Below are positions 7,940 through 35,240 of a stretch of 35,621 nucleotides of DNA, piece after piece (position 1 is the stretch's first letter; the number at the start of each line of letters is the position of its first letter). The DNA comes from a bacterium (GTDB lineage: Bacteria > CG03). The notes under the pieces are model-generated. The model was given only the letters and a program-made list of their open reading frames with translations. It was not told the origin of the DNA and searched no databases. The translations under genes and the position numbers were made by a program. The stretch is taken from the NCBI GenBank assembly GCA_013791675.1, contig VMTI01000114.1, forward strand, positions 1-35,621, in the 5' to 3' direction.

Positions 7940-8518
7940 ATGGCAATAGAAAAATCTGAAATTCTGGCAATAATAAATTCGCGTCTTAACAGGGCTGAAA
8001 CCGACATAGACGAAGAAATAAGGTCAGTGCTCTATGATATAAGTACCCGCGCCAATTTCATAAATAAGGAAGCGACCGCAGATACCACGGCAAGCACAAA
8101 CTATTACGCCGTGCCTGCCGACTTCAAGGATATGACCGTCATAAAAGCTGACGACGCCACACCACTTGACAAAATAACATTTGAGAATTTTCAAAAGAAA
8201 ATAGCGGAAGTTACGGGAACAAGCGAACCGAATGAATACTCAATAAAGAATGATTTTATATGGCTCTACCCGAACCCCGACAAAGTTTATACGCTGACGA
8301 TGTTTTATTCCATATTCCACCCGAATGACGTGGACACCATAGAATTCGGCGAACTGTTCAGGGAGTGCATTTATCAGGGAGTACTCGCAAAAATATGCGA
8401 GAAATACGAGGACTGGACAGCCGTGTCTTCACATATGACATTATACGAAGCTGAAATACAGAAGCGGAAAGACGCCCTTGACGAACCTATGTTCTTTTTG
8501 AAGGGCAACAATATATAG
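7940..8518 (+). CDS. head-tail adaptor / head completion protein
   Basis: YYAVPADF, GTSEPNEYSI...IWLYPNPDKVYTLTMFY pattern typical of podovirus adaptors; synteny. Confidence 0.7.
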   Translation: MAIEKSEILAIINSRLNRAETDIDEEIRSVLYDISTRANFINKEATADTTASTNYYAVPADFKDMTVIKADDATPLDKITFENFQKKIAEVTGTSEPNEYSIKNDFIWLYPNPDKVYTLTMFYSIFHPNDVDTIEFGELFRECIYQGVLAKICEKYEDWTAVSSHMTLYEAEIQKRKDALDEPMFFLKGNNI

Positions 8519-12955: not shown

Positions 12956-13801
12956 ATGCCAAATAGAAACATACAGCAAAGCCCGTGGAACCAGAATGTG
13001 CAGGCGGTGTCACAATTCCTTGAAACGCTGAACAACCTCAAAAAACAGCAATATGAAGGCGAACTGATGAAGCAATACGCTTCACAGGTCAGTCAGGAAA
13101 CCGACAAAAAGAAACTGCCCGAAATTATGAAACTCGTTGAGGGCGGAAATCTGACAGGCGCTCTTGAAATGGCTCTCCCTTCAATGGAGGCGCCCGCTAT
13201 TATGCAACAGAGGCAGGCGCCACAGACAGGCGGCTTTCTTTCACGGCTCGGCAATACCCTCAATCCCGTAGGCCAATATCGCGGCACCGGGCTGACACCA
13301 ACAGAGGCAACGATAACTGACGCTCGCGCCGGACAGACATCAAAGGCGCTGACACTGATAAGGAACATGCAGGCGCTGTTGGAAAGCCAAACTCCAAAAG
13401 CCGAAACAGAAGCGGCGCGCAAAAGACGAATGGCCGTTCAGGATATTGCCACATCACTGCAGAGGGGCTGGTGGAAGAATAAAAAGGGAGAAACGCTTGA
13501 TGTAACCAGCTCTGACCCGAATATGGTGATATCTGACATGGCAAGGGATTACGGCATTTCGGAAAGTGACCCCAGCGTTGTCGCTATCAAGAAGCAGATT
13601 AAAAATATAAAACCCGCACAGGCGAGAAAAGGAAAATGGAACCCGTTTGTCGAAAAGGCAGCGACACCATACGGAATAGAACTGAATAAATCGCAGAAGA
13701 CAACCTATAAATCGGCAAATGAAATAAAGAAGGCGTTTGCCGAAAATAAAATAACCGCTGTCGAGGCAAAGCAACAGTTGCTGAAATTCGGGTTCAAATA
13801 A
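12956..13801 (+). CDS. DNA ejection/internal virion protein 2
   Basis: Helical Q/A/K-rich 281 aa between ejection protein 1 and the giant gene; AAGGAGG RBS. Confidence 0.55.
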   Translation: MPNRNIQQSPWNQNVQAVSQFLETLNNLKKQQYEGELMKQYASQVSQETDKKKLPEIMKLVEGGNLTGALEMALPSMEAPAIMQQRQAPQTGGFLSRLGNTLNPVGQYRGTGLTPTEATITDARAGQTSKALTLIRNMQALLESQTPKAETEAARKRRMAVQDIATSLQRGWWKNKKGETLDVTSSDPNMVISDMARDYGISESDPSVVAIKKQIKNIKPAQARKGKWNPFVEKAATPYGIELNKSQKTTYKSANEIKKAFAENKITAVEAKQQLLKFGFK

Positions 13802-16800: not shown

Positions 16801-19800
16801 TTTATGGCGCTAACCAATAAAGACGCTAAAATGGCGGTGGCTATACTCACCACAAAACAGCAGAATACAATAGCCGCAGAGCTGATAAACGAAAAAGATT
16901 TATCAAAAGAAATGCTTGATAAATTGGAGAAAAAATACGGAGCCTCCAACATAACAATAGTATCGAATTTCAACATAAAAAATCCCGAAAGTGCCGGAAT
17001 TAAAAAAAGCAAGTGGGTGACTGAATACAACATTTACAACAGAGAGAAAAAGAAAATAACAGCAGAACTGGCCGAGCCCGCGTTCCGCGTAGCGGAAGAC
17101 GAAAAGGATAATCTCGGTGACTTCTCATATCTTCATACACCGGAAGAAACGGATATCCTGACTCCCACAAACGAGGAAATACAAAGGGAATGGGCTGGAA
17201 TAACCAGAGAGGCGCTGAATATTTGGAACAAAGAAAGAGAAACAAATTTTTTCTATATGATAGAACATGGCGAAAATCCATTCGGAGTAACAGGTTCGGA
17301 AGACCCGTCGTTACCGCCACCACAGAGAGCATGGATAGCCGATGGATTGGGCGGAGAATGGGACGCGTTGCCGGATTTCGTCAAAAAAAAGCTCAACCAG
17401 GCAGATATCCGATCCAAAGCATATAAGGCCACACACGCCGATACAGGCGGAACCGACAGATATACCGAGAGCATGGGGATAGATGATTTCAATACCGTGA
17501 TAGACGCCCTGCATAAAGTGAAACCCATAGGCAAACGCCCGACCGTTGCCGGCCCGGTAGATCATGACTTCATAAACCATTATTTTACATCGCCTGAAGG
17601 CCAGAAAGCATTGAGGGATAACAGGGAAGGCGGCATAACAAGCAAAGACGTCAAAGAAGAAATAGCGCGCATGGCAAGAATTATGATACAATGGGATGAG
17701 CAGGCCCCTATCATTCAACCCACTGGAAACAGCAAAGTGCCTGTCGCGGTGTACAGACGAACTGTCGAAAACACACAATTCAAGAAAGATAACTCGCCAA
17801 TGCAGTGGGCTGGCGCAAAAGACCAAATGCTTGGATATATCCTGAACATTCTCGGCCTGCCAAGCGAACTGAATAAAGTGACGGCCGCGGGACTTGAAAA
17901 ACTATCCCGCTTTGAATATGTCTATGACGTATTCGGGGGCTCGGGTTATATGACACTGCTTGCGCAAGAACTATTCAAGGACGCCGAAACAAACCTCAAC
18001 GAACTGGACGCCGACATGCAAAAGATATGGGCAACCATAAAAACCAACCCGGAAGGCGTAAAGGCGCGAATAGCCGAATTAAGCACGTGGATCCATATGC
18101 CCATGAAAAGTGTTCCTGTAGATTGGTGGAATCATCTCAAAGAGAAATTCGGCAAATATTATTGGGCGACCGATGAACTATGGACAGCCGCAACGATATT
18201 AAAAAACAACACAGGGCGTGACACTACAACAAAAATATCTCCAACCAAAGTCCACGAAATATGGAACTCCATAACCCCATACAGCCGGAAACTTAATAAA
18301 GCAAATATAGAACAAAGGGACGCCATAGAAATAATAGACGAAGCCCTAAAATTTCCACAGAACAAAGCGGAAAAAACTCTACTTATACTTGACCCTCCAT
18401 ATCTTTGGACATCAGGATACAAGCACGGCGCCAACTTCGAAAGACCCGCCGGATTTATGGAACTGCTCGATAAGCTGGAACAATTAAATAAAAAGGGAAT
18501 ATCCTTTATGTTTTTTAATTCAGAACCGGCGTCAGTATTCCCACGCGTCATATACGACTGGTCGCAATACCTGAAATTCGACGAAATGCAGCGGAGACTA
18601 AATGAACTCGCCGAAATGCCCGGTATGACAGTCCTTCGCATGGTGGCCCCGGCTGGCGTAGCCTCGTCTAAATTTGTTCCGAGAAAAGAAATAATCATCA
18701 CCAACCTTGAAACCGGAGGATATAAAGCAGGAAAGATAAAGAAACTCCCGTGGAGTAAAGTATCGGACTACATTAAGGTCACGAAAATCGGAATTGAACT
18801 GATAGGACAAGAAATAAAAGGCGCCCCCATAGAAAACCCCCTTACCACCAAACAAAAGAGAATGATCGCGGTATTGGCGAAAAACACTCCGTTCCAGTGG
18901 GAAGGCGATTACACTCACGAATTCCGGCAATTCGCCGAAAGGACAATTGGGAAAAAGCGCCTAACACTGATGACCGAAACCGAAGGCAAAGAACTCATCA
19001 GCGCCATTATGAAATACAAGAAAATAAACCGCGAGATAACCAACAGGACGCGAACAATGAATATGTCGCCGGCACTCTTGAAACAACAGATACACTCAAT
19101 ATTTCCCGACAAGCGCCGGATATCCGAACTTAACGACGAACAGCTCAAAATACTGAATGAATCGCTTACCCTATATGAACACACCGAAAGTGTCCCCATG
19201 CTTCATCTGATACGATACACTTCGGACTGGCTCGGCACATGGGCGGGCAGACAGAAAAGCCCAGCAGCAATGAACCTATACCACTCATTCAAAAGCCTTG
19301 AAGCCAACACAAAAGACGGCAGGGAATGGCGACTGAAACTGATACAGCAATTCAGAGAAGTATTCGAGGGAATGAACGCAAAACAGCGGGAAAAGATATT
19401 CAATTTTATGCACCGACCCAAAGGCACGACAATGGCTGAATTTATGGCAGAACGCGAAACCTATGGCCTGACAGACGCGGAAAAGAAAGCGGCCCTGCAG
19501 GCCCGCGAGCTATGGAACCGGCTATTCAAAGCCGCCGGCATGAAGGGGGAGAGATATTGGAAAGAATACCAGCCCCTCATCTTCCGCATGCTCAAAGACC
19601 CCGATACCGTAATAAAAGAATTCCGTCACCTTCCAAAAAAAGAGGTCGAGATGTTCTTCGAGAAACAGAGAATAGCCGAAGGCGACTTCATACTCGCCGG
19701 CGCCGAACAATTGACAGACCCCATAGAACTGTTTGAAATATATTCTGCGGGAGTGGTAAAAAAGAAATACATATGGCCGGCCGCGGCAAACGTGGAGAAA

Positions 19801-21252
19801 TACTTCCCGCTCGTTCCCAAAACCGTGAGAAACGCGATGTCATATATTTTGAATGATTTACTCGGTAAACAACACCCATTAGTAGAACAAATTGACGCCG
19901 GACTGCAGCGCGCCGTTCAGGCGGCTATTGACAACAAATTGGGGAGAGCAGTTAAAACCGAAGAAGCCCTCAACTGGCTCGGCTTTACAACCCGCGGGAG
20001 AATGATTGACGGAAATATATCGACACTCCGGGACTTGGTATATGCCGACCTGATAGGAACACTCGGATCAGCCATAAAGAATACCACGCAGGAAACACAT
20101 ATAATCGCGGAATATGGCGGAGTAAAATGGAGTCGCGCGGCCTGGCGGAGTAAAACCGCAAAAGGCAGACAGGAAACAGACGAGGCCGATATCTATACCC
20201 TCGGCGTTGGCGTTAAATTCAGCAAAGGCAAAGGCGCTATAGGCGAAGCTTCTCAAGTAATGACAACCCTGTTCAGAGCAAAAGACAAAGGCAGTCGCCA
20301 GAAGGCATACCTCTGCGGAATAATAACGGCAGAAGACTGGGTGCCTAAATATGAAGCCGGGAAGATAACGGCAGACGAATTGGCGAGCAAACTAAAATTC
20401 ACATTGAGAACAGACGCTCAATACCAAATAGGAATGATGGTTATACTGGACGACCCAAAAGCGTATACCGAACCGGTTATCAATAACCTGACAAAAAGGG
20501 TAAGAGATAAAATACTGAAACTGAAAGAAACCGACCCCATTGCCGCAAAGATATTCTATCTCGGTCACCTTTCCGGCTATTGGGCGCAAGCAATGACACA
20601 ATACCCATATTACGCCGAAGAAACGGAAGCGCTTTATCGCGGGCCGGCAGGTAAACTGCTGGGGACATTCGGAACATGGCCTCCCCGTTTTGCCGCTATG
20701 GTAAACCGGTGGGCTCACGGCGGGGCTGACGGACGCAAGGCATTCATCAGATATATCCTGCAATGGATTTTAATAATAACAGCAGGTTCGACGATGGGTA
20801 TCAATTTCAAGAAATGGATAGGCCCTGCATCGTGGAGAATAGGGAACGGTTTTGCCACTGTACTTGGTGCCCCCGGTTATCTGGCGTTGGCTATCTCAAG
20901 TTATGTAGGCAGTATTATGACCGACAGTAAATGGGATTTAACAAAAGCAAATGATTGGATGTATAAAATGAGAGGAAGTATACGCGCCCCCGGACAAAGG
21001 CAAATCAAATCAACTGTCGAAGCCCTAACCACCCCGGGATTAACAGACTGGGAAAGATTAAAGATATTCACGCAAATGCCCCAGACTGAAGAATTTTCAG
21101 AGAAGCGCCGGAAGATAAAGCGAGATGTAAAAAAGGCAATAAAAAGTAAATCAACATACCAGGGCGGAACAGTACGAACCGGATCGTCCGGCGAAACCGT
21201 GAGAAGCGGAGGAACAGTAAGCACCAGAAGCGGCGGAACCGTGAGGAGATAA
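13801..21252 (+). CDS. giant polyvalent ejection-type protein (2483 aa) with sigma70-like, RadC/JAB and Dam-like N6A MTase domains
   Basis: Third gene of the ejection cluster. Sigma ~15480-16140; RadC ~16357-16700 (HNHPSG at 16576); MTase ~17794-18708 (DVFGGSG at 17926, DPPY at 18391); helical C-terminus with hydrophobic segments ~20740-20920. Confidence 0.9.
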   Translation: MALSADEFLGIKPKRKAQSADAFLGIKPSADEFLGIQEEQTPKPYAGLTPEQIQVEKERQRQAGTMPQTPQEQFIPMPEGGPRRDVFQQPPQIQPPIAQAPGAIQIPQAMQMPTPQQQGMQMPSMPVPQQMQPQPGPQMLPEQVEQLRQSVQPGEMAKMMWQGAVEGGATAASGFTGIYKVGEQIIKGEDLLTSMQTATDAIQKGQTLGDLLREGYEPQTKSVFQNFVAYAGRDLTAWALDTITNPKELAELYLWSKGIGMIRRAGVTGVNAIAEKFVDSPGVLGKLSRAGLAERKLADVLPKYTEADAVAIRKFFYNVDNKFGRGAADRVWRSLYEKGKTWEKSRVTSLIQKIKGAGAEKRTELLAKEILGQVKKAPVQRVSEGITGGEVKARLGQWGGGGIGKIKTPKGASTALEQIDDLIKTRASLPTKPTAEMPNPDAVLNDITGAINSAVKAAGEYFKSVGEEAFRYASGETLKNKIIDLVKKNPELREHLDIQVLMPAAVSPAAKPAEVKPAIVSEEAPEEEYVAPTAEQEETARILGTAELTKEEIAQGKQASVGRLISSIAKTEQRGNPSISFADLVQAGNIGTMKAYKNYIPGETKFSTYAYKSIRSAIREEIARQKNLITYPQSVRRKLNRVYKAIFEIQQDTGIVDRIPPTSRIAARTGMLNKEIDELLSTQLTRMEKLEQQEEGQKTTYIETLPGTEARQVEITEIKDRVSHLTKGLSERELQIIDLKYGLTSGSTMNVRDIADEFKISKTRVGQIIDIAISKMKARAGITTEATDEQITMLFEHKRALTETVQTELTFGTTKKRDAGALEMIKNMDLNKEREQVVLKEIKIKHIKTEGWKITDDKSAVKFVNLIRHPGIEHFTIIYTDKTGKIITYKVFSSGAVDYVDVKELYPILSRDMKADPNIVNFWIGHNHPSGNPEASTNDRILMKALTKIPKFAGHIITDHKTYTSIGKDGSERLKQQTQKLEDWSGVESSIKSINDIANSFMALTNKDAKMAVAILTTKQQNTIAAELINEKDLSKEMLDKLEKKYGASNITIVSNFNIKNPESAGIKKSKWVTEYNIYNREKKKITAELAEPAFRVAEDEKDNLGDFSYLHTPEETDILTPTNEEIQREWAGITREALNIWNKERETNFFYMIEHGENPFGVTGSEDPSLPPPQRAWIADGLGGEWDALPDFVKKKLNQADIRSKAYKATHADTGGTDRYTESMGIDDFNTVIDALHKVKPIGKRPTVAGPVDHDFINHYFTSPEGQKALRDNREGGITSKDVKEEIARMARIMIQWDEQAPIIQPTGNSKVPVAVYRRTVENTQFKKDNSPMQWAGAKDQMLGYILNILGLPSELNKVTAAGLEKLSRFEYVYDVFGGSGYMTLLAQELFKDAETNLNELDADMQKIWATIKTNPEGVKARIAELSTWIHMPMKSVPVDWWNHLKEKFGKYYWATDELWTAATILKNNTGRDTTTKISPTKVHEIWNSITPYSRKLNKANIEQRDAIEIIDEALKFPQNKAEKTLLILDPPYLWTSGYKHGANFERPAGFMELLDKLEQLNKKGISFMFFNSEPASVFPRVIYDWSQYLKFDEMQRRLNELAEMPGMTVLRMVAPAGVASSKFVPRKEIIITNLETGGYKAGKIKKLPWSKVSDYIKVTKIGIELIGQEIKGAPIENPLTTKQKRMIAVLAKNTPFQWEGDYTHEFRQFAERTIGKKRLTLMTETEGKELISAIMKYKKINREITNRTRTMNMSPALLKQQIHSIFPDKRRISELNDEQLKILNESLTLYEHTESVPMLHLIRYTSDWLGTWAGRQKSPAAMNLYHSFKSLEANTKDGREWRLKLIQQFREVFEGMNAKQREKIFNFMHRPKGTTMAEFMAERETYGLTDAEKKAALQARELWNRLFKAAGMKGERYWKEYQPLIFRMLKDPDTVIKEFRHLPKKEVEMFFEKQRIAEGDFILAGAEQLTDPIELFEIYSAGVVKKKYIWPAAANVEKYFPLVPKTVRNAMSYILNDLLGKQHPLVEQIDAGLQRAVQAAIDNKLGRAVKTEEALNWLGFTTRGRMIDGNISTLRDLVYADLIGTLGSAIKNTTQETHIIAEYGGVKWSRAAWRSKTAKGRQETDEADIYTLGVGVKFSKGKGAIGEASQVMTTLFRAKDKGSRQKAYLCGIITAEDWVPKYEAGKITADELASKLKFTLRTDAQYQIGMMVILDDPKAYTEPVINNLTKRVRDKILKLKETDPIAAKIFYLGHLSGYWAQAMTQYPYYAEETEALYRGPAGKLLGTFGTWPPRFAAMVNRWAHGGADGRKAFIRYILQWILIITAGSTMGINFKKWIGPASWRIGNGFATVLGAPGYLALAISSYVGSIMTDSKWDLTKANDWMYKMRGSIRAPGQRQIKSTVEALTTPGLTDWERLKIFTQMPQTEEFSEKRRKIKRDVKKAIKSKSTYQGGTVRTGSSGETVRSGGTVSTRSGGTVRR
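15480..16140 (+). other. sigma70-family domain (regions 2, 3, 4) inside the giant protein
   Basis: RLISSIAK..DLVQAGNIGTMKA..KFSTYAYKSIRSAI..PPTSRIAARTG..LSERELQIIDLKYGL..IADEFKISKTRVGQIIDIAISKMK is colinear with RpoD RLVISIAK..DLIQEGNIGLMKA..KFSTYATWWIRQAI..EPT.EE.A..LT.RE..VL..RFG...VTRERIRQIEAKALRKL. Confidence 0.92.
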
Positions 21253-21735: not shown

Positions 21736-23964
21736 ATGAAAAAAATACTGCTCGGTTTATTTTTATCTGTAGCGATATTATCGGCATGGTCTGACTCATT
21801 TTATCAGCCCGTTTACAACGACACTACCACACCGACAACTGTCGATTACCATGTGGCCGGCAGATTCTTCATAGGCCCGTCAACATATACATATGGCGTA
21901 GCGATATCATCATGGCAGATACGACTGCAGGACGGCACAATCATAACCTCAACGGCGGCATTCGCAGGAGCGGATAACCTAACATCTGAAATAGCAAGAG
22001 CAACCGCAAGAGAGAATGACATAGCAGTATCCACCGGAAATATACAAACGGACTTAGACATCGCAGAGGCGCGGCTTGTTTCCGTGGGAGTGGATACCGG
22101 CACGATAAAGGCGGCGCTGAACGCGGAAATTACGGATACCGATACAAACTTCGGGAATGTAGCCATAGATACCACGACATTGGGGACTGACCTTACTACC
22201 GAAATATCTGACAGGCAGACAGGTGATAGCGACCTCGGTTATTCTACGGGAGTTATAAGCGGGCAGATAGACAGTTTGCAAACACAAATATCAAATAATG
22301 ATGACGCGATAGAGGCACTCGGCGTAAGCACAGGCACAATATATGCGGCATTGCAGTCAACAGGTGCGGCTCTCTCCGCGGAGATTACAAGGGCGACCGA
22401 TAGGGAAAATGATATAGCCGTAGGCACAGGAACAAATAAAACGGCAATAGATTTGAATACATCGGGCGTTGCTGATTTGCGTGTTTCAACGGGCACGAAT
22501 TATGCGGCGATAAATTCTACGGCGGCGGCATTGACGGCGGAGATAGCAAGGGCGGTTGCGAGAGAAAACAATATAGCGTATTCAACGGGAACAACCTATG
22601 CGGCGTTGCAGGCGACATTCACATATTTGAATGAATATAAACTTGGAGTAACAGCGAAAGCCGCGGACAGCGAATTACTTGCCGGCAGGAATTACGACGC
22701 TTTTGTTTCTACTATGGGCGATACGATGAGCGGAGATTTAATTATAGAAGGATATGCGAATCCGATGAGCAACAGAAAATCGCTGATGTTAAAAGACAAG
22801 TATAGTGGTTTTGGCGGAACAATTACGGTGGACAGTGAGGGATTAAAAGTAATTAGTTCTGGGCAGTTAATACTTTATGGCGAGGATACAGCAGGTTTAT
22901 ATATCACATCTGACGGATGCGTTTTTCTAAAAAATGTGGAATTTGACCCCAATTTAACTCTAAGTATGAACGAAGGAAAAATCACAAACATCTCCACATC
23001 CCCCGTAAACAACGGCGACGCCTCAACAAAGGGCTACACGGATTACGCTATAATGAAGGCGACGGACGCAATCGGCGGCGGTTCAGGTGATATGACAAAA
23101 GCCGTCTATGATACCGACGCAAATAATGTCGTTGACAATGTTCAAAAGCGATATGTTTATTTCTCAAAAGTGGGAGAACTCTCATCTTTTACCGGAGATA
23201 GTTGGGGAAGTGATTTTAGACTTTTGCCGGATACCTACACCCTTACAAAAGCGTATATTATGCAGGGGTCGACAGGAACAACAGATACTATTATACACGT
23301 CGGAAATCAGGATAATCTTGAGATAGCGGCGTTCACAATTCCGGTGGGAGCTGATTGCGTAGAATTATCAACGAGCGTGGTTTTTAATAAATGCGATATA
23401 ATAAATTATCACATAGACGATATAGCAACTCCGACAAACTTAATGGTATGGAACGCCGGATTTGAGGACTCTCAAACAGGCGTAGCGGGTTCATCGTGGA
23501 CAGAATTAGGAACAGCGGAGAGTATAGGCAGGCAATCAGATTTTGCGCACAAAGGAACTTATTCCTGCCGCTTTGATAATTTAACGACTTCCTATTCTGG
23601 CAGGTGGATAGCATATTCCACGGTCACAATAACAGCGACGGAAACCTATACTGTATCGGCTTGGTTCAGGACGAATTACGCCACCACTACTAATATACGA
23701 TTGTATATTGACCTGTTTGACGCAGGCAATAATCTTGTCGGAACAGTGACAAGCGGAGCGACTAATTTAACAAGCGATAGCACGTGGGGGGGAATTTCAA
23801 TATCAACGACAGCGGCGAGCAATGTTACGCAGGGAAGATTAAATATAGACGCAAACGAAAGTATAAATAACGATGCCGAAGTATGGATAGACCAATGCCT
23901 TGTGGGTATAAATATCCCTGCTATCAGTAATCTTGCTATAACGCTGGAGCTTGAAAAGCAATGA
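21736..23964 (+). CDS. tail fibre/receptor-binding protein with coiled-coil repeats and C-terminal carbohydrate-binding-like module
   Basis: Three L..EI.RA..REN.IA..TG repeats, ITNIS.SPVNNGDASTKGYTD neck motif, C-terminal NAGFED..W..AHKGTYS (CBM4/9-like); signal-peptide-like N-terminus. Confidence 0.75.
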   Translation: MKKILLGLFLSVAILSAWSDSFYQPVYNDTTTPTTVDYHVAGRFFIGPSTYTYGVAISSWQIRLQDGTIITSTAAFAGADNLTSEIARATARENDIAVSTGNIQTDLDIAEARLVSVGVDTGTIKAALNAEITDTDTNFGNVAIDTTTLGTDLTTEISDRQTGDSDLGYSTGVISGQIDSLQTQISNNDDAIEALGVSTGTIYAALQSTGAALSAEITRATDRENDIAVGTGTNKTAIDLNTSGVADLRVSTGTNYAAINSTAAALTAEIARAVARENNIAYSTGTTYAALQATFTYLNEYKLGVTAKAADSELLAGRNYDAFVSTMGDTMSGDLIIEGYANPMSNRKSLMLKDKYSGFGGTITVDSEGLKVISSGQLILYGEDTAGLYITSDGCVFLKNVEFDPNLTLSMNEGKITNISTSPVNNGDASTKGYTDYAIMKATDAIGGGSGDMTKAVYDTDANNVVDNVQKRYVYFSKVGELSSFTGDSWGSDFRLLPDTYTLTKAYIMQGSTGTTDTIIHVGNQDNLEIAAFTIPVGADCVELSTSVVFNKCDIINYHIDDIATPTNLMVWNAGFEDSQTGVAGSSWTELGTAESIGRQSDFAHKGTYSCRFDNLTTSYSGRWIAYSTVTITATETYTVSAWFRTNYATTTNIRLYIDLFDAGNNLVGTVTSGATNLTSDSTWGGISISTTAASNVTQGRLNIDANESINNDAEVWIDQCLVGINIPAISNLAITLELEKQ

Positions 23965-24311
23965 AAAAACTATTTACTCTTTTAGCATTATTTTTTCTTG
24001 CCTTATTTTCTATTGCGGCGAGGGCATCTCAATGGAGTAAAGTTAGAAAAGCATACTTAAAAGCTCATCCTGTTTGCGAGGTTTGCGGTAGTAAGAAAAA
24101 ATTACAGGTTCATCATATAATTCCTTACGCAGAGGATAAGTCGCTGGAGCTTGAGCCGAGCAACCTAATAACGCTTTGCAGTCGGTGTCATTTGATTTTT
24201 GGACACTTTGGAAACTACAAAACATATAATCCTTTTGTTCGGGAAGACGCCGAATGGTTTAGAAAAAGAATGAAAAACGCGAAGATTATTGACGGAGATT
24301 TAGAAACGTGA
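23961..24311 (+). CDS. HNH endonuclease with signal-peptide-like N-terminus
   Basis: CEVC..LQVHHIIP..NLITLCSRCH; N-terminus MKKLFTLLALFFLALFSIAARA. Confidence 0.85.
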   Translation: MKKLFTLLALFFLALFSIAARASQWSKVRKAYLKAHPVCEVCGSKKKLQVHHIIPYAEDKSLELEPSNLITLCSRCHLIFGHFGNYKTYNPFVREDAEWFRKRMKNAKIIDGDLET

Positions 24312-24716: not shown

Positions 24717-24796
24717 TTTTCAATATCCCGGAATTTTGGTATAGTGTAGCAGGGGCATTGATTGTTGTATACGCAATAAGGAGTTTACTGAAATGA
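24713..24796 (+). CDS. 27-aa single-TM peptide in the lysis cassette
   Basis: MIFNIPEFWYSVAGALIVVYAIRSLLK*; overlaps the upstream stop and the endolysin ATGA. Confidence 0.45.
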   Translation: MIFNIPEFWYSVAGALIVVYAIRSLLK

Positions 24797-25176
24797 CGAC
24801 AGAACAATGGATGACGATTAAGCATTTCACCTATCGTGAATTTGTATCACCAGATACCGGCGAGGAGAATATGGATTATCGTATGGTTCATTTTCTTGAT
24901 ATTATGAGGCAGATATTAGGCTTTCCGATAGTGATAACCAGCGGGTATAGAACGCCGGAATATAATGCGAAGATTGGCGGAGTGGCGGACAGCGCCCATT
25001 TGCGCGGACTGGCGGTTGATATAAAATGCGTGAGCTCATTTACGCGCTGGAAGATAGTAAATTTTGTTATGAATTGGTATAATGGCGTAGAGGTAAGAAG
25101 GGCTGGGATTGGCGATACTTTTCTGCATATCGATATAGACAGCAGTTTGCCAAATCCCGTGATGTGGACATATTAA
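24793..25176 (+). CDS. endolysin, peptidase M15A family
   Basis: ITSGYR..N..IGG..SAHLRGLAVDI...FLHIDI Zn-peptidase motifs. Confidence 0.9.
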   Translation: MTTEQWMTIKHFTYREFVSPDTGEENMDYRMVHFLDIMRQILGFPIVITSGYRTPEYNAKIGGVADSAHLRGLAVDIKCVSSFTRWKIVNFVMNWYNGVEVRRAGIGDTFLHIDIDSSLPNPVMWTY

Positions 25177-25186
25177 GGAGGATATT

Positions 25187-25639
25187 ATGAAAATTGAAAT
25201 TGACATGAAGATTGTGAAAGATTTGGTGGCTCACATGAAAGAGCAGCTCGGCACGGCAGAAATGAAAAACAAATTCCTGCAAATCCGTACGGACTGGAAG
25301 GCCAATCCCCTGAAAGTCAAAGGATCCATCAAAGACTTCCTCGCGCAAATGCAGATAAAATTCGCTATGGTCGACATCTTCGTCACCACGGTTATGGCCG
25401 CCGCCGACAAAGCCTCGGCATTCTTCAAGGGAATAGGGCAAATAGACCCCAAAACAAAGACCGGGGCCGAATGCCTCGAGGCCGGAGCGCTATTCCTGGA
25501 CAGCGTGGTTAAATTCCCCATGTCCTTCACCGGCCGGCTCCTCGAAATGTTCGACAAGAAAATATTTTACTTCCTGCTCCAACTGTTCTTCTACTTCCAC
25601 AAAAAGAAGAAAAATGACGGCTATGTGATAGAGATATAA
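25187..25639 (+). CDS. hypothetical protein (lysis region)
   Basis: AAGGAGG RBS; hydrophobic C-terminal segment followed by KKKK. Confidence 0.65.
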   Translation: MKIEIDMKIVKDLVAHMKEQLGTAEMKNKFLQIRTDWKANPLKVKGSIKDFLAQMQIKFAMVDIFVTTVMAAADKASAFFKGIGQIDPKTKTGAECLEAGALFLDSVVKFPMSFTGRLLEMFDKKIFYFLLQLFFYFHKKKKNDGYVIEI

Positions 25640-25641
25640 CC

Positions 25642-26133
25642 ATGAAAAAGTTTACATATTATCTGGTAGCGATAGCTCTGTTTTCAACACAATGCCACGC
25701 ATGGTCATGGTTCGGCGCCGAATTCAAGAACGAAATGACCAAGCAGCAGAACAGCACCAACAAGCGCCTATCCGATATTAAGGCCGGAATCAATGATGTT
25801 CAGCTTAAGCTCGGAAATATCTCGCTGTCTCTCCAGGCCCAGGCAAACGCCACCGCAAAGGTTCAAGCCGGAATCGACAAGAGCAATACGCAGAGCGCCG
25901 GCCGCGATATTATCTCAACAGAGAACAACAGCACAGAACTGATGCTTAAAATCTTTGAGGGCGTCTCGGCCTTGTTTCTCGCAATGTTCGCTTTCATGAA
26001 GGCCCGCGTAAATGTGCTCTCGAAACAGAACGAATATCTTACCGAAAGCCGAAAAAAATATCAGGATCGCTTTCTGAAACTGCTTTCCCCGGAATACGAA
26101 AAACTCGTAGACAAGGAAAATCCCGAATCGTAG
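25642..26133 (+). CDS. membrane/periplasmic coiled-coil protein, possibly spanin-like
   Basis: Signal-peptide-like N-terminus, coiled coil, second hydrophobic helix (IFEGVSALFLAMFAFM); last gene of the lysis cassette. Confidence 0.5.
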   Translation: MKKFTYYLVAIALFSTQCHAWSWFGAEFKNEMTKQQNSTNKRLSDIKAGINDVQLKLGNISLSLQAQANATAKVQAGIDKSNTQSAGRDIISTENNSTELMLKIFEGVSALFLAMFAFMKARVNVLSKQNEYLTESRKKYQDRFLKLLSPEYEKLVDKENPES

Positions 26134-26212
26134 AACGAAAAAAAAGAAAACCCCCGCAACAACCGAAAATCTTTCTCACCCCCCTACCCCCCAGACGCTT
26201 TCGCATTCTGTT

Positions 26213-26244
26213 CTATTATGTGTCAGATTACCGGATTTGTCCAG
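26213..26244 (-). promoter_or_regulatory. phage-specific promoter motif, copy P1 (leftward)
   Basis: Minus strand CTGGACA-AATCCGGTAATCTGACA-CATAAT-AG. Confidence 0.75.
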
Positions 26245-26778
26245 CCCAACATCAAAATCCAAACATAAATTCCCCGATTTCACTCACAAATCAACAGAAA
26301 CCCCTCAAATTCGCTGTTTAAGCCACTTTCCCCCATTCAACGAGTAACGAGCCGATACTTTAACCATTATGCGAAATTTAAACCATAAAACCCCCCATAG
26401 CTTTTGAAATTAAACCAATGTCAAGACCCCCTCTTTGGCACTGGATGGCATATTATAGGGGTGTACCACGGTTCATCACTCGACCCAGTGCGCCCTATAT
26501 GGCGAGCCGACACCCCCCTCCCCCCCCTATGCAATGAGCAGAACAACGGCGACCGCGAAAGGACAGCACCAGGATCGCAGCACTACACACAGCACAGCAC
26601 AGGGCAGGGGCAGGCAATACAGGGTAGAGCCGGTTCGTAATACGCACGAGGTCGAGCACAGAGGCACGAACGACAGCGACGGCAGACACAGACACGCGGG
26701 AGAAGGCGAGCACAACAGACAGCAAGCGAAGCAGGGCAGTAGCGATAACGGCGGGGAGAGCGTGAAAATCAAGGCGTC

Positions 26779-26876
26779 GCAAGGACTTTCAAGCCCAAGT
26801 TGTGATAATGTTGATTATGTAAACTTTTAGAGACCGGAGAGCCCACGAAAATGCCGACAGGGCAAGGACTTTCAAG
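26779..26876 (+). repeat. 15-bp direct repeat GCAAGGACTTTCAAG (26779-26793, 26862-26876)
   Basis: Exact repeat on either side of the first dif-like site. Confidence 0.85.
26798..26825 (+). other. dif: dif-like XerC/XerD recombination site 1
   Basis: AGTTGTGATAA-TGTTGA-TTATGTAAACT: 11-6-11 layout, partial dyad, right arm matches the B. subtilis-type XerD arm TTATGTAAACT. Confidence 0.8.
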
Positions 26877-26935
26877 GGCAAATACTACTTAATACCCCTT
26901 AATACCCTTTCACGAAGGGTGCACGAACAGGGAAA

Positions 26936-26963
26936 AGTTTACATAACATATTTTACTTTCCGA
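26936..26963 (-). other. dif-like site 2, inverted, degenerate XerC arm
   Basis: Minus strand TCGGAAAGTAA-AATATG-TTATGTAAACT. Confidence 0.6.
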
Positions 26964-27270
26964 AGGACAGAGCCAAAAAAGAGGGCAAATCGTACCCCAA
27001 CGAACTCCCCGAAGCAGCGGCCGGCGCACCGAAGGGAAAAAGAAAGGCGAGCGAAAGCCGAAAGGCGGGAGCCGGGCGGGAGCCAGCAGTAAACAGCGAG
27101 AACAATAGAGATAGAATAAATAAAGAGACAACAACAACAACAAAGAGAAAGAACAGAACAAAGAGAACAGAACAGAACAGAACTAAGAACAGAACAACGC
27201 ACGCACGCGAAACAAGACGCGCGAAAGACAAGGGGGGCAAGGCTCGGGACAAAGGCTCGAACAAACCCGA

Positions 27271-27302
27271 CTGGACAAGAGGGCAAAAGCAACACATAAT
27301 AC
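27271..27302 (+). promoter_or_regulatory. phage-specific promoter motif, copy P2 (early genes)
   Basis: CTGGACA-AGAGGGCAAAAGCAACA-CATAAT-AC, ~70 bp upstream of the first early ORF. Confidence 0.8.
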
Positions 27303-27374
27303 AACAGCAGCGGACGACAGGACGCCGGAAAGAACGAAGCCGAGCGGACAGAAGCGGACGAAAGAGAGGACAAA

Positions 27375-28445
27375 ATGGAAGACAGAAGCGGAACAAAGAC
27401 AAAAAGCGAAATCAAATGGCTGGAAGAAGCGAAACACAACCGCTACCTAAGCCTGGCGGGAGAAGGGAGACTGCACACGCTGAAGTGGAACGAGGCACGG
27501 AAGGAAGGAGACCGCCGGAAGGCGGAAAGCGAGGAAGAAATGATAAACCACGAAACAGACAAAGCGGCGGCGCGCAACACCATCAAAGTCGGCGACACCG
27601 TAACCGTAGACCCACAGCTGACCACAGACCCCTACAACCGCAGAGGACAGAGCGGAACGGTAACGCAACTGATGGGCGACAAGGCCACGGTCACCTACGA
27701 GAAACCGCACGAGGCCTGCAACGGATACCGCACCAGGGCAGGCTACTACCACACAGACGCCCTGATAAAGCAGGAGCCGGAAGACGAAGGACTGCCGACA
27801 CCGGAGCAGGACGCGCAAATCGCCAAAGAGCGGAAAGCATACGAAGACACGGAGCGCGAGCCGGAGAGAACCAGAAAAGAACATCTCATCCACCAGTACA
27901 ACCACGGCGCAATCACGACAGCGGAGCAGAAGGAGCTGGACGCACTGGAAGCGAGGGAAAGAATGGACAAGAATTTCAAAGAGCCGGAGGACACGTTCAA
28001 CGGCAGGCTGAACAAACACGCAAAACCGAGCGACACACAGACAGAGCGGGTAAAAGCAGCCTACGAAACAGGGCTGGAACACGGCAGGGAAATCGCGGAG
28101 GAGGAAGCGGAAGAACAGCGCGACAACGCCACGATAGCCGGATACGAACAGGGCTACGAGGCAGGGCGCAAAAGAAGCGCGATCCGCGGAAACAAAGCGG
28201 AAGACGGAGCGGAGCAAGAAGCAGACGGCCTGATAGGAAAGGGAATCACCATCACCGGCCTGGACGAGCTGGGCTGGTGCGAAATCTGGTGGGCAATAGA
28301 CGCGGCCGTAATCAGCAGACTGGGCACAATGAAGACAGCAACGCACCAGGACGAAGTGGACTGGGCGACAAACGCCGTGAAGCAACTGCAGAACGCCAAA
28401 AAGCAGATAGGGAAAATAGCACATCCGATAGGGGCAGAGGACTAA
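27375..28445 (+). CDS. early protein, charged, with a KOW/SH3-like segment
   Basis: GAGAGGA RBS; IKVGDTVTV...GQSGTVTQL.GDKATVTY resembles a KOW/SH3 barrel; synonymous T avoided. Confidence 0.7.
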   Translation: MEDRSGTKTKSEIKWLEEAKHNRYLSLAGEGRLHTLKWNEARKEGDRRKAESEEEMINHETDKAAARNTIKVGDTVTVDPQLTTDPYNRRGQSGTVTQLMGDKATVTYEKPHEACNGYRTRAGYYHTDALIKQEPEDEGLPTPEQDAQIAKERKAYEDTEREPERTRKEHLIHQYNHGAITTAEQKELDALEARERMDKNFKEPEDTFNGRLNKHAKPSDTQTERVKAAYETGLEHGREIAEEEAEEQRDNATIAGYEQGYEAGRKRSAIRGNKAEDGAEQEADGLIGKGITITGLDELGWCEIWWAIDAAVISRLGTMKTATHQDEVDWATNAVKQLQNAKKQIGKIAHPIGAED

Positions 28446-28447
28446 AC

Positions 28448-28511
28448 GCCGAAACCCGGGACAGCAACCGGGTCCGCGGGAAACGGTCAATCCGCGCTGA
28501 TGAGGCAGACC
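28448..28511 (+). ncRNA. type II hammerhead ribozyme
   Basis: GCC-GAAA-CCCGG/CCGGG-TC-CGCGG/CCGCG-CTGATGA-GGC: full core; GUC cleavage after 28474; loop I GGTC can pair with 3' tail GACC. Confidence 0.92.
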
Positions 28512-28546
28512 ACAATACCGGCAGCAGGCCGGAAAGAGAGGAAAAG

Positions 28547-28783
28547 ATGAACGCGATCGACGCAAAGACAAAAAAGAAAAGCCGCCCATTCGTGCTGTGG
28601 GCAGACTGGAGAGATGCCAGCTCGCTGATGAGAACCCTGTGCCGGCTGACAAACAAGAGACCCCGGTGCTACAGATACATAAACACCGGAGCAGACGACA
28701 TCGCCGTGATAGTAAGCGACACCCGGCTAACAGAGAAAGAAGCGGACGCCGCATACTCGGCATGGATAAACGGGAAAGGCTAA
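28547..28783 (+). CDS. hypothetical early protein (78 aa)
   Basis: GAGAGG RBS before MNAIDAKTKK; the real part of the long track ORF 27416-28783. Confidence 0.65.
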   Translation: MNAIDAKTKKKSRPFVLWADWRDASSLMRTLCRLTNKRPRCYRYINTGADDIAVIVSDTRLTEKEADAAYSAWINGKG

Positions 28784-28818
28784 ACGAACCGCCGGACACC
28801 GGCAGAGGAGAGGGTAAA

Positions 28819-29139
28819 ATGACACACAAACTAATCATAATCAGCCTGCACGACGCACAAGCGGAATGCACCTGCGGACACTGGCGAATGATAGGAACAG
28901 GGGAGCGGAGCAAGAAAGAGATACGAGCGGAATACAGAAAGCACAAAAAAGGAGAAAGCACAATGGAAACAAACAAGACCGAAGTTTTCAAATCAGCAGT
29001 AGGCGACAGAAAGGGATGGGCATTTTCAGTAGGCAGGAACTTTGTATCGGCGCTCTACAAGACACAAAAGGAGGCCAAGCAAAAACTGAAAGCCTACTTG
29101 GGAACAGGCAAGTTTGACTGGTACGGGACTGCGGAATAA
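28819..29139 (+). CDS. hypothetical early protein with in-frame internal start at 28963
   Basis: GAGGAG RBS before MTHKL (CTCGH motif); second AAGGAG RBS before METNK. Confidence 0.6.
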   Translation: MTHKLIIISLHDAQAECTCGHWRMIGTGERSKKEIRAEYRKHKKGESTMETNKTEVFKSAVGDRKGWAFSVGRNFVSALYKTQKEAKQKLKAYLGTGKFDWYGTAE

Positions 29140-29155
29140 AAAGGAGGAAAGCAAA

Positions 29156-29404
29156 ATGAAGCAATGGAAAATCAACGTGTTCAAGGACTGCATCGTGGAA
29201 ACGGACGGAGAGAAAACGCGGATAGTATGCGAGCGCCCTAATTACAGAGGGTCGGAGGAAAACTTCGAGAAGGACGGAGCGCTCATCGCGGCCGCGCCGG
29301 AACTGCTTGATGCGTGTAAAATGGCAGTAAAAAAACACGGCGAATTTGATTATCTTATGAAGGCAATCGCAAAAACGGAAGGGGGCGAGGATGATTATCA
29401 TTAA
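29156..29404 (+). CDS. hypothetical phage protein (LIAAAPELL motif)
   Basis: AAGGAGG RBS; DGALIAAAPELLDAC motif common in small phage early proteins. Confidence 0.7.
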   Translation: MKQWKINVFKDCIVETDGEKTRIVCERPNYRGSEENFEKDGALIAAAPELLDACKMAVKKHGEFDYLMKAIAKTEGGEDDYH

Positions 29405-29570
29405 AATTGAAACAGAGAACGCAGCATTTGAAGCGCCGGACAAAGACCACGAGGCCGCGCGGATATTGCGGAAGCTCGCGGACAGGTTAGACCGTCACGA
29501 TTGGCCTGTATCGCTTTATGATATAAACGGGAACAATGTTGGAACAGTGGAGGAAAAAGAATATGAATAA
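29391..29570 (+). CDS. 59-aa phage protein
   Basis: MIIIKIETENAAFE...EAARILRKLADRL...DINGNNVG; missing from the ORF track; overlaps both neighbours. Confidence 0.7.
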   Translation: MIIIKIETENAAFEAPDKDHEAARILRKLADRLDRHDWPVSLYDINGNNVGTVEEKEYE

Positions 29571-30324: not shown

Positions 30325-30525
30325 ATGACCAAACCGATAACCCACTGCGGAGAAATAGCAGACGCAATCAAGAAGATATTCCCGGACATCGTAGAATTCC
30401 ACCAGCTTCGGGAGAGCATACTCATGCGGATAAAGCACAGCGACGGCAAGAAATACACGATAACGATACACCCGGAGCAGAGGATAAGCGCAGCAACCAA
30501 AAAGGAAAGAGGGGTAAATGAATAA
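30325..30525 (+). CDS. hypothetical protein
   Basis: AAGGAG RBS before MTKPITHC. Confidence 0.55.
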   Translation: MTKPITHCGEIADAIKKIFPDIVEFHQLRESILMRIKHSDGKKYTITIHPEQRISAATKKERGVNE

Positions 30526-31336
30526 GCTTTCAACGGAACTCGATAAGCGCTCCCTCGGCATGAGTGGCATAAATATGCTCTTTAAGTGCGGCGAGCAATT
30601 CCGTCGCCGTTACATTATGAACGAAATCGTCCCGCCCGGCATAGCCCTCATTATAGGAAGCAGCACCCACAAAAGCATAGAAGTCGACCTCACCGAAAAG
30701 AAAGACACAGGCAAGCTGGCACCCGGCGACCTGCTGGCAGAAATAGCGTCCGAGCAGATAAAAGGCGCATGGGATAAGGGCGTGATATTGAACGATGACG
30801 AAAAGCTGGCCGGCAAGCGGGCAACACGAAACGACGCCATAAACACAGCCATAGCCATGTCAAACCTTCATCACGAAATCGTGGCCCCAACCATAGAGCC
30901 AATAAACTTAGAGGACTATTTCAGCTTCGACATCAGCGGAACGAACTGGAAGCTGGCGGGCACATCCGACATCGAGGAAAAGGTGGCAGGCGGTATCGGA
31001 CTGCGGGACACGAAGACAGCAGGGAAATCCCCGGGGAAGACAGACGCGGACGACAGCCGGCAGCTCACAATGTATTCGCTCAAAGTATTAAAGCAAACGG
31101 GATCCCTGCCGAAGCACATACAGCAGGATTACCTCATCAAAAACAAAACACCGAAATATGTTTCACAGGAAACAGAGCGCACAGCGGGCGACATCAAAAC
31201 CCTGCTGGTATGCGTGGCGCAGGCGATAAAAGTGATAGAATCAGGGATATTCACGCCATGCAGCACATCAGCATGGTGGTGTGCCCCGGCATATTGCGGA
31301 TACTTTGGCACGTGTAAATATAGGAGGAGAGGATAA
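30518..31336 (+). CDS. PD-(D/E)XK exonuclease, Cas4/RecB-like
   Basis: N-terminal Cys, GSSTH, LAGTSD..LRDTKT, QLTMY, C-terminal C..YCGY..TC cluster. Confidence 0.85.
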   Translation: MNKLSTELDKRSLGMSGINMLFKCGEQFRRRYIMNEIVPPGIALIIGSSTHKSIEVDLTEKKDTGKLAPGDLLAEIASEQIKGAWDKGVILNDDEKLAGKRATRNDAINTAIAMSNLHHEIVAPTIEPINLEDYFSFDISGTNWKLAGTSDIEEKVAGGIGLRDTKTAGKSPGKTDADDSRQLTMYSLKVLKQTGSLPKHIQQDYLIKNKTPKYVSQETERTAGDIKTLLVCVAQAIKVIESGIFTPCSTSAWWCAPAYCGYFGTCKYRRRG

Positions 31337-33463: not shown

Positions 33464-34219
33464 ATGGCCGAAGTAAAACAGGAACTGACAAAGAAAGACC
33501 AGGCAAGCGCTCTGGTTGACTGGATGAAACCCGCAATGGCGACCGCCCTGCCCCGGCACCTGAACGCCGACCGCATGGTGCGAATCGTGCTCACAGAGAT
33601 GAGGCGCAACCCCAAACTGGTGACCTGCACAAAGCAGAGCCTGGCCGGATCCGTGATCATGGCCTCACAGCTTGGCCTCGAACCCGGAGTAAACGGGCAG
33701 TGCTGGCTCGTGCCCTACGGCAACGAAGCAACATTCATCATCGGGTATCAGGGGCTCATCGAGCTGGCCTACCGCAGCAACATGGTGGAATTCGTAATAG
33801 GAGAAGCCGTGTACGAAAATGACGAATTCACTTACTCGCTCGGCACAGAGCAGTTTATCAAGCACGTGCCGGCAGAGGCCGACCGCGGGAAGCTCAAAGC
33901 GGCCTACGCCGTAGCCAAAATGAAAGGCGCGAGCATGCCCGTATTCAAAGTGCTGACGAAAGAAGATATCCTCAAAGTAAAGGCATCTTCGCCCGCGGCC
34001 AACAGCGCACACAGCCCGTGGAATACGTGGCCGGAAACGATGTGGGTAAAGACAGCCGTCAAAAAGCTGATGAAATTCATCCCGAAATCAGCGGAGATTA
34101 ACAAGGCGTTGGAAGCGGACGACAGGGTGGACGCGGGAAAACCGCAGCCCTTTAGCGACGTCATCGACCTGCCGGAGGAGAAGGAAGGAAAGGGAATCGA
34201 GATAGAGGACGTAAAGTAA
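33464..34219 (+). CDS. recT: RecT single-strand annealing recombinase
   Basis: ALPRHLNADRMVRIVLTE.RRNPKL..C...S, SQLGLEPG, LVPY, IIGYQGLIELAYRS, SPW..WPETMWVKT. Confidence 0.95.
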   Translation: MAEVKQELTKKDQASALVDWMKPAMATALPRHLNADRMVRIVLTEMRRNPKLVTCTKQSLAGSVIMASQLGLEPGVNGQCWLVPYGNEATFIIGYQGLIELAYRSNMVEFVIGEAVYENDEFTYSLGTEQFIKHVPAEADRGKLKAAYAVAKMKGASMPVFKVLTKEDILKVKASSPAANSAHSPWNTWPETMWVKTAVKKLMKFIPKSAEINKALEADDRVDAGKPQPFSDVIDLPEEKEGKGIEIEDVK

Positions 34220-34307: not shown

Positions 34308-35240
34308 ATGAGAAAAACTAAACCCCGCAAACGATATAGCGACTGCGCTCGCTGGCACACCAAAAAGTGGCGCACCATGCCCACGCACCTCAAAGTGCTG
34401 TGGCAATACATATGGGAGAACGCCAACTGCGCCGGAATATGGGAGCCCGAGCTCGCCCTCATGGGAATTGAGGCCGGTGGCGTACCCATAAACGAAACAG
34501 AAATCAAGAAGGCCTTCGGCGAAGATATCCTCATCCTCCCGCACGGCGAATGGTATATAATAGGATTTATCAAATTCCAATATGGCAAAGAGCTCGAACA
34601 GATGAACCCCAAGAGCATGCTCCACGCCGCAGTCCTGGCGGCCGCAAAGGATAAGGGAATAGGCAGGGGCAGGATAATGGGGCTGATGTCAAATCCGATA
34701 GCGCCGGAAATCCCCGCGCCGATAGTGGCCCCCTTGCCTGACCCCGGGCCGGCGCCGGAAGCCATAGAACCGGTAAAAGACCCTACTTATAAGGAAAAGC
34801 AACCGGAACTCCCAACAATACCCCCGCGCCCAGTCCAAGCGGGCACATATTACGGTACCACAACGAACTTCGAGAGCATATGGGCTAAATACCCCCAGAA
34901 GACAGGGAAACGCGGCGCATGGGCGCATTTCAAGGCACAATGCCGAACCGCCGCAGACTGGGAGGCCATAAACATCGCATTGGCGAATTATTTGAAAAGC
35001 CCGCGGGTGAGAGACGGGTATATACAGGACGGCGAAACATGGTTCAATAACTGGAAGGACTGGGTGGCCGATCCTAACGCCGCGATAGAGAAGAAAAAAC
35101 CGGACGATGATTTTGTGCCGATAACATGCACGACATGCAGCCGGAAATTCGCCGTGCCCAAGGATGTGGCAAAGGCGATAGCGGATGAAGAAAAGGACTT
35201 TGTGTGTAGGGACTGCCGAAAAAGAGAGCGGCCGGAATGA
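34308..35240 (+). CDS. replication initiator / replisome organizer with C-terminal Zn finger
   Basis: LKVLWQYIWENANCAGIW N-domain, Pro-rich linker, FESIWAKYPQKTGK..A....K and YIQDGETWFN..W.D, CxxC...CxxC. Confidence 0.75.
   Translation: MRKTKPRKRYSDCARWHTKKWRTMPTHLKVLWQYIWENANCAGIWEPELALMGIEAGGVPINETEIKKAFGEDILILPHGEWYIIGFIKFQYGKELEQMNPKSMLHAAVLAAAKDKGIGRGRIMGLMSNPIAPEIPAPIVAPLPDPGPAPEAIEPVKDPTYKEKQPELPTIPPRPVQAGTYYGTTTNFESIWAKYPQKTGKRGAWAHFKAQCRTAADWEAINIALANYLKSPRVRDGYIQDGETWFNNWKDWVADPNAAIEKKKPDDDFVPITCTTCSRKFAVPKDVAKAIADEEKDFVCRDCRKRERPE

Follow-up and report, generated by a model that had tools for sequence, protein, structure and literature searches.

The stretch of DNA analysed here (the window) is the entire 35,621-nt contig VMTI01000114.1, positions 1 to 35,621 (C209), of the 2.14-Mb metagenome-assembled genome (MAG) GCA_013791675.1 (G000) from a bacterium of the lineage CG03. 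It belongs to a tailed phage, and all of its long open reading frames (ORFs) lie on the + strand. Our subject is the start of the early operon of this phage, where thymine (T) is nearly eliminated from the + strand. The same condition was found in a relative, a closed 38,997-nt viral contig (G036), and the T-purged start of the early operon measures 2.4-2.7 kb across the two phages. The features at this locus are listed below, where T3 stands for T at third codon positions and RBS for ribosome-binding site.

26134-27374: gene-free gap of 1.24 kb, without ORF
26134-26529, + strand: G-poor C-run block after the last late gene; G 13%, C 33%; 217 YC dinucleotides per kb vs 91/kb elsewhere
26530-26770, + strand: T-poor block 1, non-coding; 6.2% T, 68% purine
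26771-26990: T-normal island; 21.8% T
26991-27374, + strand: T-poor untranslated leader; when extended to 27539, 4.2% T, 74% purine and no TTT
27375-28445, + strand: first early ORF (ORF1); 356 aa from the ATG at 27375, T3 0.01, orphan
27483-27543, + strand: 61-nt element; 93% identity to the sequence just ahead of the G036 first-gene ATG (L109 9944-10004)
28447-28514, + strand: type II hammerhead ribozyme; Rfam RF02276, 44.4 bits vs a gathering score of 37
28510-28549, + strand: variant hairpin-RBS cassette before ORF2; CCGGC-AGCAG-GCCGG, then GAAAGAGAGGAAAAG and ATG
28547-28783, + strand: second early ORF (ORF2); 78 aa, T3 0.01, no known family
28819-28962, + strand: third T-poor coding unit (ORF3); 48 codons, T3 0/48, no stop of its own, continues into the next unit
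28963-29139, + strand: first T-normal unit; 58 codons, AAGGAG ahead, downstream edge of the block

From a contig mean of 18.7%, T drops to 3-8% over 26530-28962, interrupted by the 220-nt T-normal island. A first-pass annotation, made from the letters alone, had placed the depletion at 26530-29000 and counted 12 T in 360 nt at 27001-27360 and 14 T in 240 nt at 26521-26760. Both counts are exact and T is indeed depleted between those limits (8.5%), but the downstream limit is better set at 28962 than at 29000. As described there, the depletion takes in the non-coding leader together with the first genes that follow the late module. At its downstream limit it ends abruptly: none of the 48 codons preceding the ATG at 28963 has T in third position; of the 58 codons after that ATG, five do, and 13 have T in first position. 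All of the 12 longest T-free runs of the contig fall within 26536-28230. When the MAG was scanned for each base in 20,095 windows of 500 nt, so that both strands were covered, a base fell below 8% in only 12 windows, located at 26901-28500 of this contig. The block is 66-74% purine, against a fraction of 0.58 elsewhere, and its A content is 35-43% (whole contig: A 33% vs T 19%). C is unchanged, so the effect is T-specific. Shine-Dalgarno (SD)-like words reach 25-31/kb in the purine-rich leader vs 15.6/kb. The block is an extreme, local and T-specific case of sense-strand purine loading, placed like the early regions of phages T5 and T7.

The stretch was recovered from 19 runs (groundwater, biofilm or soil metagenomes), for which the data were assembled contigs; the host MAG is 90% complete. 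In four groundwater runs from four different studies, contig pieces matched the block with 0 differences, and the tail-fibre region varied. These matches show that the block is not an assembly artefact. This phage also occurs in a sister MAG (G004); over 35,594 nt, the two copies have 6 mismatches. In a run from another groundwater study (X4), a contig matched only 27382-27570, and its flanks were unrelated and T-richer; judged by its sequence, this contig may derive from a mosaic relative carrying the N-terminal segment of ORF1 in another context.

Within ORF1, T had been reported to appear almost only where the amino acid requires it, and 75 of its 78 T are indeed obligatory. The three avoidable ones occur in the codons CAT, AAT and CAT, and T3 is 0.01 vs 0.15 at second positions. 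Serine is encoded by AGY eight times and never by TCN, and leucine by CTN 19 times and never by TTR. Taken together, the three T-poor ORFs have 4 T-ending codons among 482, vs 1730 of 10159 (17%) for all other genes. T occupies 0 of 200 four-fold degenerate sites in the window block (P = 5e-14) and 8 of 300 in G036 (P = 2e-17). The use of amino acids is also shifted in the block, with Phe at 0.18x, Val at 0.46x and Glu and Arg at 1.7x. In both phages, T3 increases with position in the early operon (Spearman 0.54, P = 0.018 in one; 0.56, P = 0.009 in the other). The block additionally contains open stretches of 593 and 513 codons in several frames, at 27416-28783 on the + strand and 27447-28991 on the - strand. 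Stop codons contain T (and, on the opposite strand, A), which is why so many frames stay open here. These long extra ORFs are by-products, with no evidence of overlapping genes.

The composition could in principle reflect a mutational process acting on one strand, such as deamination or a repair bias tied to transcription or replication. A loss of T to C, caused by adenine deamination on the other strand, would enrich C, but C does not take the place of T at four-fold sites, and a T-to-C transition model was rejected in both phages (P = 9e-8 in the window, 5e-7 in G036). Proportional redistribution fits G036 (P = 0.46), and the window phage moves further towards purines; G is not depleted. In addition, T persists wherever it is functionally required: at obligatory codon positions, in start codons, in the ribozyme core, in the two promoter-like pairs of the leader and in the island. 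The skew is not mirrored across the island. We consider a one-strand mutational origin very improbable. The cause of the depletion is selection and not T-to-C mutation, in agreement with the proposal of the first-pass annotation that it looked selected.

The non-coding part of the locus has a defined internal structure. The C-run block at 26134-26529 resembles a Rho-loading (rut) region in composition, and the late operon has no intrinsic terminator after it. The motif ATAGGGG occurs at 26455, with an inverted copy at 26524, at the edge of the T-poor domain. Block 1 follows; its 16 T show no codon phase that would fit an ORF at 26534-26830, and its counterpart in G036 (at about 19700-19850) has no sequence similarity to it. 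The island was correctly singled out earlier as a true exception to the depletion. CAAGGACTTT is carried by a direct repeat of 47 nt, whose copies lie at 26752-26798 and 26835-26881, and a perfect inverted repeat of 14 nt occupies 26815-26828 and 26933-26946. A dif-like core is located at 26799-26830 (G036: L109 9787-9818); its 26 nt at 26805-26830 share 88% identity with G036. A single mismatch separates the 20-nt core pattern from position 2182 of host contig C8 (C8:2172-2205), in a gap between convergent ORFs, and likewise from C272:91 (C272:85-118). The element shows the features of a XerC/D dif-type site, namely a core of ~28 bp, two arms, a 6-bp spacer and resemblance to the host dif, and presumably also to the dif of Escherichia coli. 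Given this sequence, the phage may use the host XerC/D for integration at dif or for dimer resolution; a blastn search of C8 and C272 against the contig gave no match that would indicate a phage-host junction.

The leader is predicted to be 70-87% unpaired. Five of its 14 T sit in two sigma-70-like hexamer pairs, TAAACA-16-TAGAAT (27090-27117) and TGGACA-17-CATAAT (27272-27300). The first-pass annotation had named the promoter as a second exception to the depletion; no sigma-70-like promoter was found within the island itself, and the two pairs lie in the leader. Between them is an (AGAAC)n array of about 10 copies (27146-27196). Contigs from another run (X3) are seemingly cut at 27118-27196, suggesting that the copy number of this array may vary between strains.

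No Pfam or PHROG family matched ORF1, ORF2 or ORF3 at cut-offs, and ORF1 matches no anti-restriction family. ORF1 is mildly acidic (pI 5.3), and its structure model has a pLDDT of 62 and a pTM of 0.24. It was an orphan in a word-indexed search; HMMER recovered one relative besides itself, protein P0055 of G036, with which it has a small beta-domain (residues 70-132) in common. The domain is 32-47% identical between the two, and the first-gene proteins about 30%. A KOW/NusG-like identity of this small domain was considered and rejected, since neither Pfam (best E 0.04-0.23) nor PDB sequences (E 0.084) backed it.

The 61-nt element consists of a GC hairpin, CCGCC-GGAA-GGCGG, followed by GAAAGCGAGGAAGA and ATG. 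It ends at the first-gene ATG of G036, and ORF1 may accordingly start at the ATG at 27540 (Met56). The hairpin, with a GNRA-type loop, and the RBS core recur before other ATGs in the blocks of both phages (in G036 also at L109 10356-10387). The cassette is 93% identical between phages whose proteins are 30-58% identical. Such an element might stabilise the mRNA, bind a protein or act in the manner of boxB; covariation was observed for 0 of 5 pairs of the hairpin cassette.

The hammerhead starts 2 nt past the ORF1 stop, between ORF1 and ORF2, and has 5 T in 68 nt. Positions 1-66 of the 66 model positions were matched (E 4.9e-7 for 4 kb, 4.3e-6 for the whole contig), the core motifs CGAAAC, GUC and CUGAUGA are present, and both stems are paired in the alignment. 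It is the sole Rfam match at E <= 0.1 in the contig. Cleavage is predicted after position 28474. Hammerhead cleavage leaves a 5'-OH end.

G036 carries P0055 and is related to the window phage across its whole genome. Identities are 47% for the portal, 58% for the capsid protein, 51% for the adaptor, 25-30% for a giant protein, 52% for the fibre C-terminus and 50-56% for three small early genes. The order of features is also conserved: the late genes end at 19422 and are followed by a T-poor part at ~19700-19850, a T-normal island, a T-poor leader and the first gene. The island of G036 carries CAAGGACTTT and the same dif-like core. Its first gene has a T3 of 0.03 and its second 0.06, and T use relaxes afterwards. 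The non-coding T-poor parts of the two phages have their composition in common and not their sequence. G036 also encodes a weak integrase-like protein of 568 aa.

Further members of this clade were sought. Single queries with ORF1 and the portal matched nothing in viral or genome contigs. A profile built on the portal yielded 80 loci, and 10 full contigs of those 80 were examined. They share only the large terminase (TerL), the portal and the major capsid protein, and they have neither the block nor the early genes. In their T-poorest 500 nt, T content is 0.47-0.75 of the contig's own mean, vs 0.24 in the window phage. As they share only the head module, they are uninformative on the early region. 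The giant-protein profile, the beta-domain profile and the 24-nt cassette matched only G036. Among genomes of the host family (10), class (11) and phylum (26), the searches gave only the copy of the window phage in G004.

The remaining genes of the window phage are listed below.

630-1001, + strand: small terminase; Pfam GP3_package
1002-2450, + strand: large terminase; PHROG
2692-4512, + strand: portal, P22-type
5364-6425, + strand: major capsid protein; PHROG, Pfam
7940-8518, + strand: adaptor, SU10-type
13801-21252, + strand: giant 2,483-aa protein; matches to Sigma-70 regions 2 and 4, RadC/JAB and PHROG 'DNA methyltransferase'
21736-23964, + strand: tail-fibre-like protein; weak CBM_4_9 match (Pfam, below cut-off) and position
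23961-24311, + strand: HNH endonuclease; Pfam
24793-25176, + strand: M15 peptidase; Pfam
from 27375, + strand: small orphan genes; no family
30518-31336, + strand: PD-(D/E)XK nuclease; Pfam
33464-34219, + strand: RecT; Pfam
34308-35240, + strand: replication-initiator-like protein; PHROG, weak

The contig has no end overlap and is therefore not closed; it breaks within a gene and not within the gene-free gap. Its 5' end lies inside a gene, and by eye the last residues resemble the C-terminus of a C5 methyltransferase. The nearest characterised relatives of TerL are distant (27-31% identity). The HNH gene, between the fibre and lysis genes, has the highest T3 of the contig (0.36), which suggests a recent arrival. 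The giant protein (2,595 aa in G036, L110 6097-13884) belongs to the virion module and combines sigma-70-type with DPPY methyltransferase-like domains; the G036 protein has Sigma-70 region 4, and the motif DPPYLWT is invariant. A RadC/JAB domain is present in the window phage only. No relatives beyond this pair were found among 5.8 billion proteins, and the C-terminus had no relatives. With this domain content, the giant protein might bring a sigma factor and a methyltransferase into the cell.

One explanation offered by the first-pass annotation was restriction evasion, in which a T-free strand would lack A/T palindromes and sites with adenine on both strands, so that this DNA, if the first to enter, would escape cutting until the phage's own counter-measures take effect. 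There are known precedents for protected leading DNA: the first-step-transfer DNA of T5 has no EcoRI sites, and T7 expresses Ocr first. The block resembles the T5 first-step-transfer region and the T7 class I genes with Ocr in that it holds the first genes of a one-way genome under strong restriction pressure, with a long leader, tandem promoter-like sites and orphan early proteins. The pressure is evident from the tetramers: CTAG is absent from both phages (about 128 and 139 expected), and the window genome has 35 GATC, 29 GTAC and 47 ACGT, with 128 expected for each. These three are 3-4-fold low in the phages, and CCGG and GCGC are over-represented. The host MAG has 247 CTAG vs 8071 expected (observed/expected, O/E, 0.03), an O/E of 0.23-0.30 for GATC, GTAC and ACGT, and about 2.2 for CCGG, GCGC and CGCG; this signature, shared by MAG and phages, supports the host assignment. 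TCGA is likewise low in both phages and in the host MAG. Within the block, A/T-containing 4-bp palindromes do fall to 8.5/kb from 34-36/kb elsewhere. Moreover, G036 encodes a C5 and an N6/N4 methyltransferase, and both giant proteins have a DPPY methyltransferase-like motif.

The sites under selection, however, persist in the block. Its 2,433 nt contain 3 GATC, 2 GTAC and 1 ACGT, so that CTAG, GATC, GTAC and ACGT together amount to 6 observed vs 4.9 expected, where the expectation is block composition multiplied by the genome-wide O/E. The G036 blocks contain 9 of the same four tetramers vs 8.4 expected. At 2.5-3.3 per kb, these tetramers are no more strongly avoided in the blocks than across the genomes. 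The density of GC-only palindromes is undiminished (26/kb vs 19-22/kb; CCGG 20 times in 2 kb), and the loss of T mostly removes AT-only words, which elsewhere are not avoided. Host-relevant restriction sites are therefore present in the block, which thus lacks the one defining feature of protected leading DNA that could be examined. It also differs from the T5 and T7 early regions in that its first protein is only mildly acidic and matches no anti-restriction family. These results do not support the restriction hypothesis as first put forward, and we regard it as improbable.

A second explanation, also raised at first pass, is transcription processivity. An A-free template would have no weak rU:dA pairs, no U-tract terminators and no -10-like (TAnnnT) pauses or promoters, and a polymerase, perhaps directed by the sigma domain of the giant protein, would cross 2.4 kb unstopped, possibly pulling the DNA in. 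In T7, transcription is known to pull DNA into the cell. In the 2,213 T-poor nt, TTTT occurs 0 times (vs 3.35/kb elsewhere) and TTT once, and none of the 11 terminator-like sites found lies on the + strand in 25500-29500. The T of the leader clusters in the two promoter-like hexamer pairs, all genes lie on one strand, and the giant protein of the window phage has sigma regions 2 and 4, that of G036 region 4. Avoidance of terminators or -10-like sequences, however, requires the loss of T-runs or hexamers and not of every synonymous T. A P22-type portal and a GP3_package small terminase hint at headful packaging, in which the genome ends are permuted; this would speak against any fixed leading end. 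On balance, processivity as the cause appears unlikely, although it deserves some weight.

The strict strand specificity of the purge, its cost per base and its strength in the first genes would also suit a template effect, in which modified adenines in the infecting DNA (e.g. dense N6-methylation by methyltransferases of the phage) would slow the unmodified host polymerase and the first genes would keep an A-free template. The DPPY-motif methyltransferase-like domain of both giant proteins and an N6_N4_Mtase in G036 are compatible with this. On the other hand, no PurZ-type or other adenine-replacement gene and no DNA polymerase was found among the 23 G036 and 49 window proteins scanned with Pfam or PHROGs, the methyltransferase-like domain of the window phage matched 0 Pfam families, and the late genes are read from the same kind of DNA. 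N6-methyladenine is not known to block bacterial RNA polymerase. Taken together, this makes a modified template a distinctly improbable cause.

The explanation we favour, tentatively, is that the first transcript, being U-poor, withstands both U-dependent RNases and termination at U-tracts. Each T appears to be costly, and the purge is sense-strand specific, affects coding and non-coding DNA and is strongest at the 5' end of the operon, from which it is graded; this would suit an agent acting on each U of the transcript or each A of the template. The block contains several RNA-level elements, i.e. the hammerhead, the hairpin-RBS cassettes and the leader predicted to be nearly unstructured, and the host MAG has an RNase E/G gene (273.8 bits, on contig C95). 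According to PMC8522691, RNase E favours a uracil at +2, two positions after the cut, and A20 is cleaved more slowly than A20U. In the proposed mechanism, the 2.4-kb domain would be the 5' part of the early transcription unit, where selection on each sense-strand T has removed U. The first mRNA would come from a single genome copy, before any phage protein exists. If nearly free of U, it would offer almost no targets to U-dependent endoribonucleases (RNase E/G, U-specific defence RNases), and intrinsic termination would find no U-tracts in it. The hammerhead and the GC hairpin-RBS cassettes would be further parts of this RNA design. We infer from these observations that RNA rather than DNA is the target, and likewise which enzyme is avoided. 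Escape from U- or T-specific toxins, including endoribonucleases or DarT, had also been suggested at first pass; the DarT part of that idea does not fit, as the opposite strand, with about 37-43% T, would remain exposed. A search of the MAG for DarT gave no match, but neither did its control search, so this result carries no weight.

Several observations weigh against a U-poor transcript. Its main weakness is the position of block 1. The island and both of the sigma-70-like promoters that were found, the only ones, come after this block, yet in the two phages it is just as poor in T as the leader. AT dinucleotides are not avoided among the remaining T (62 observed vs 54 expected), and PMC8522691 also indicates that U-free A-rich RNA is still cut by RNase E, only more slowly. 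The ORF part of the block folds like the rest of the genome (-31.9 vs -33.2 kcal per 150 nt), because its GC content rises to 55-58%. The hammerhead is absent from G036 and from the 10 head-module relatives, the feature is carried by only two phages, and none of the 19 runs holding the stretch is an RNA run. Two related ideas were rejected. RNA-structure minimisation was dropped as a general cause, since the minimum free energy of the ORF part equals that of the rest of the genome, and was kept for the leader only. Avoidance of Rho (YC) as a common feature was dropped because YC is depleted in the T-poor block of the window phage and not in G036, whose T-poor parts have 92-132 YC/kb vs 89 elsewhere.

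The block can be compared with two other known phenomena. Szybalski's transcription-direction rule describes a purine loading of the sense strand that is ordinarily mild and genome-wide. Here, too, the purine excess lies on the mRNA-synonymous strand and all genes point one way, but T is nearly eliminated within a sharply bounded 2.4 kb, with C at the genome level. Protection of phage mRNA is also known, from the polypurine 5' stabiliser of Bacillus phage SP82, gp0.7 of T7 and Dip of phiKZ. The likeness lies in an early phage mRNA protected from host decay and in the purine-rich, SD-like leader. Those systems, however, are short elements or proteins, whereas here the whole 5' 2.4 kb has been recoded. 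A search of the literature found nothing on local thymine depletion in a phage early region.

A bolder possibility, which we advance with some doubt, is that the removal of a single base from the sense strand of the genes expressed first serves as a general, protein-free counter-defence, a 'boot sector' reached independently by unrelated phages. The first transcript, or its template, would leave a base-specific enzyme of the host without a substrate for as long as phage proteins are not yet in control. Synonymous sites, codon families, amino-acid use and spacers are all bent in the same direction, which points to a strong agent acting per base in the first minutes of infection. This agent lies either outside the standard list of phage-host conflicts, or it is a known one, such as RNase E-type decay or termination, with a weight that has gone unrecognised. 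If found, it would explain a class of compositional islands in phage genomes, provide a sequence signature for the first-expressed genes of uncultured phages, and give a design rule for stable, U-poor bacterial mRNAs.

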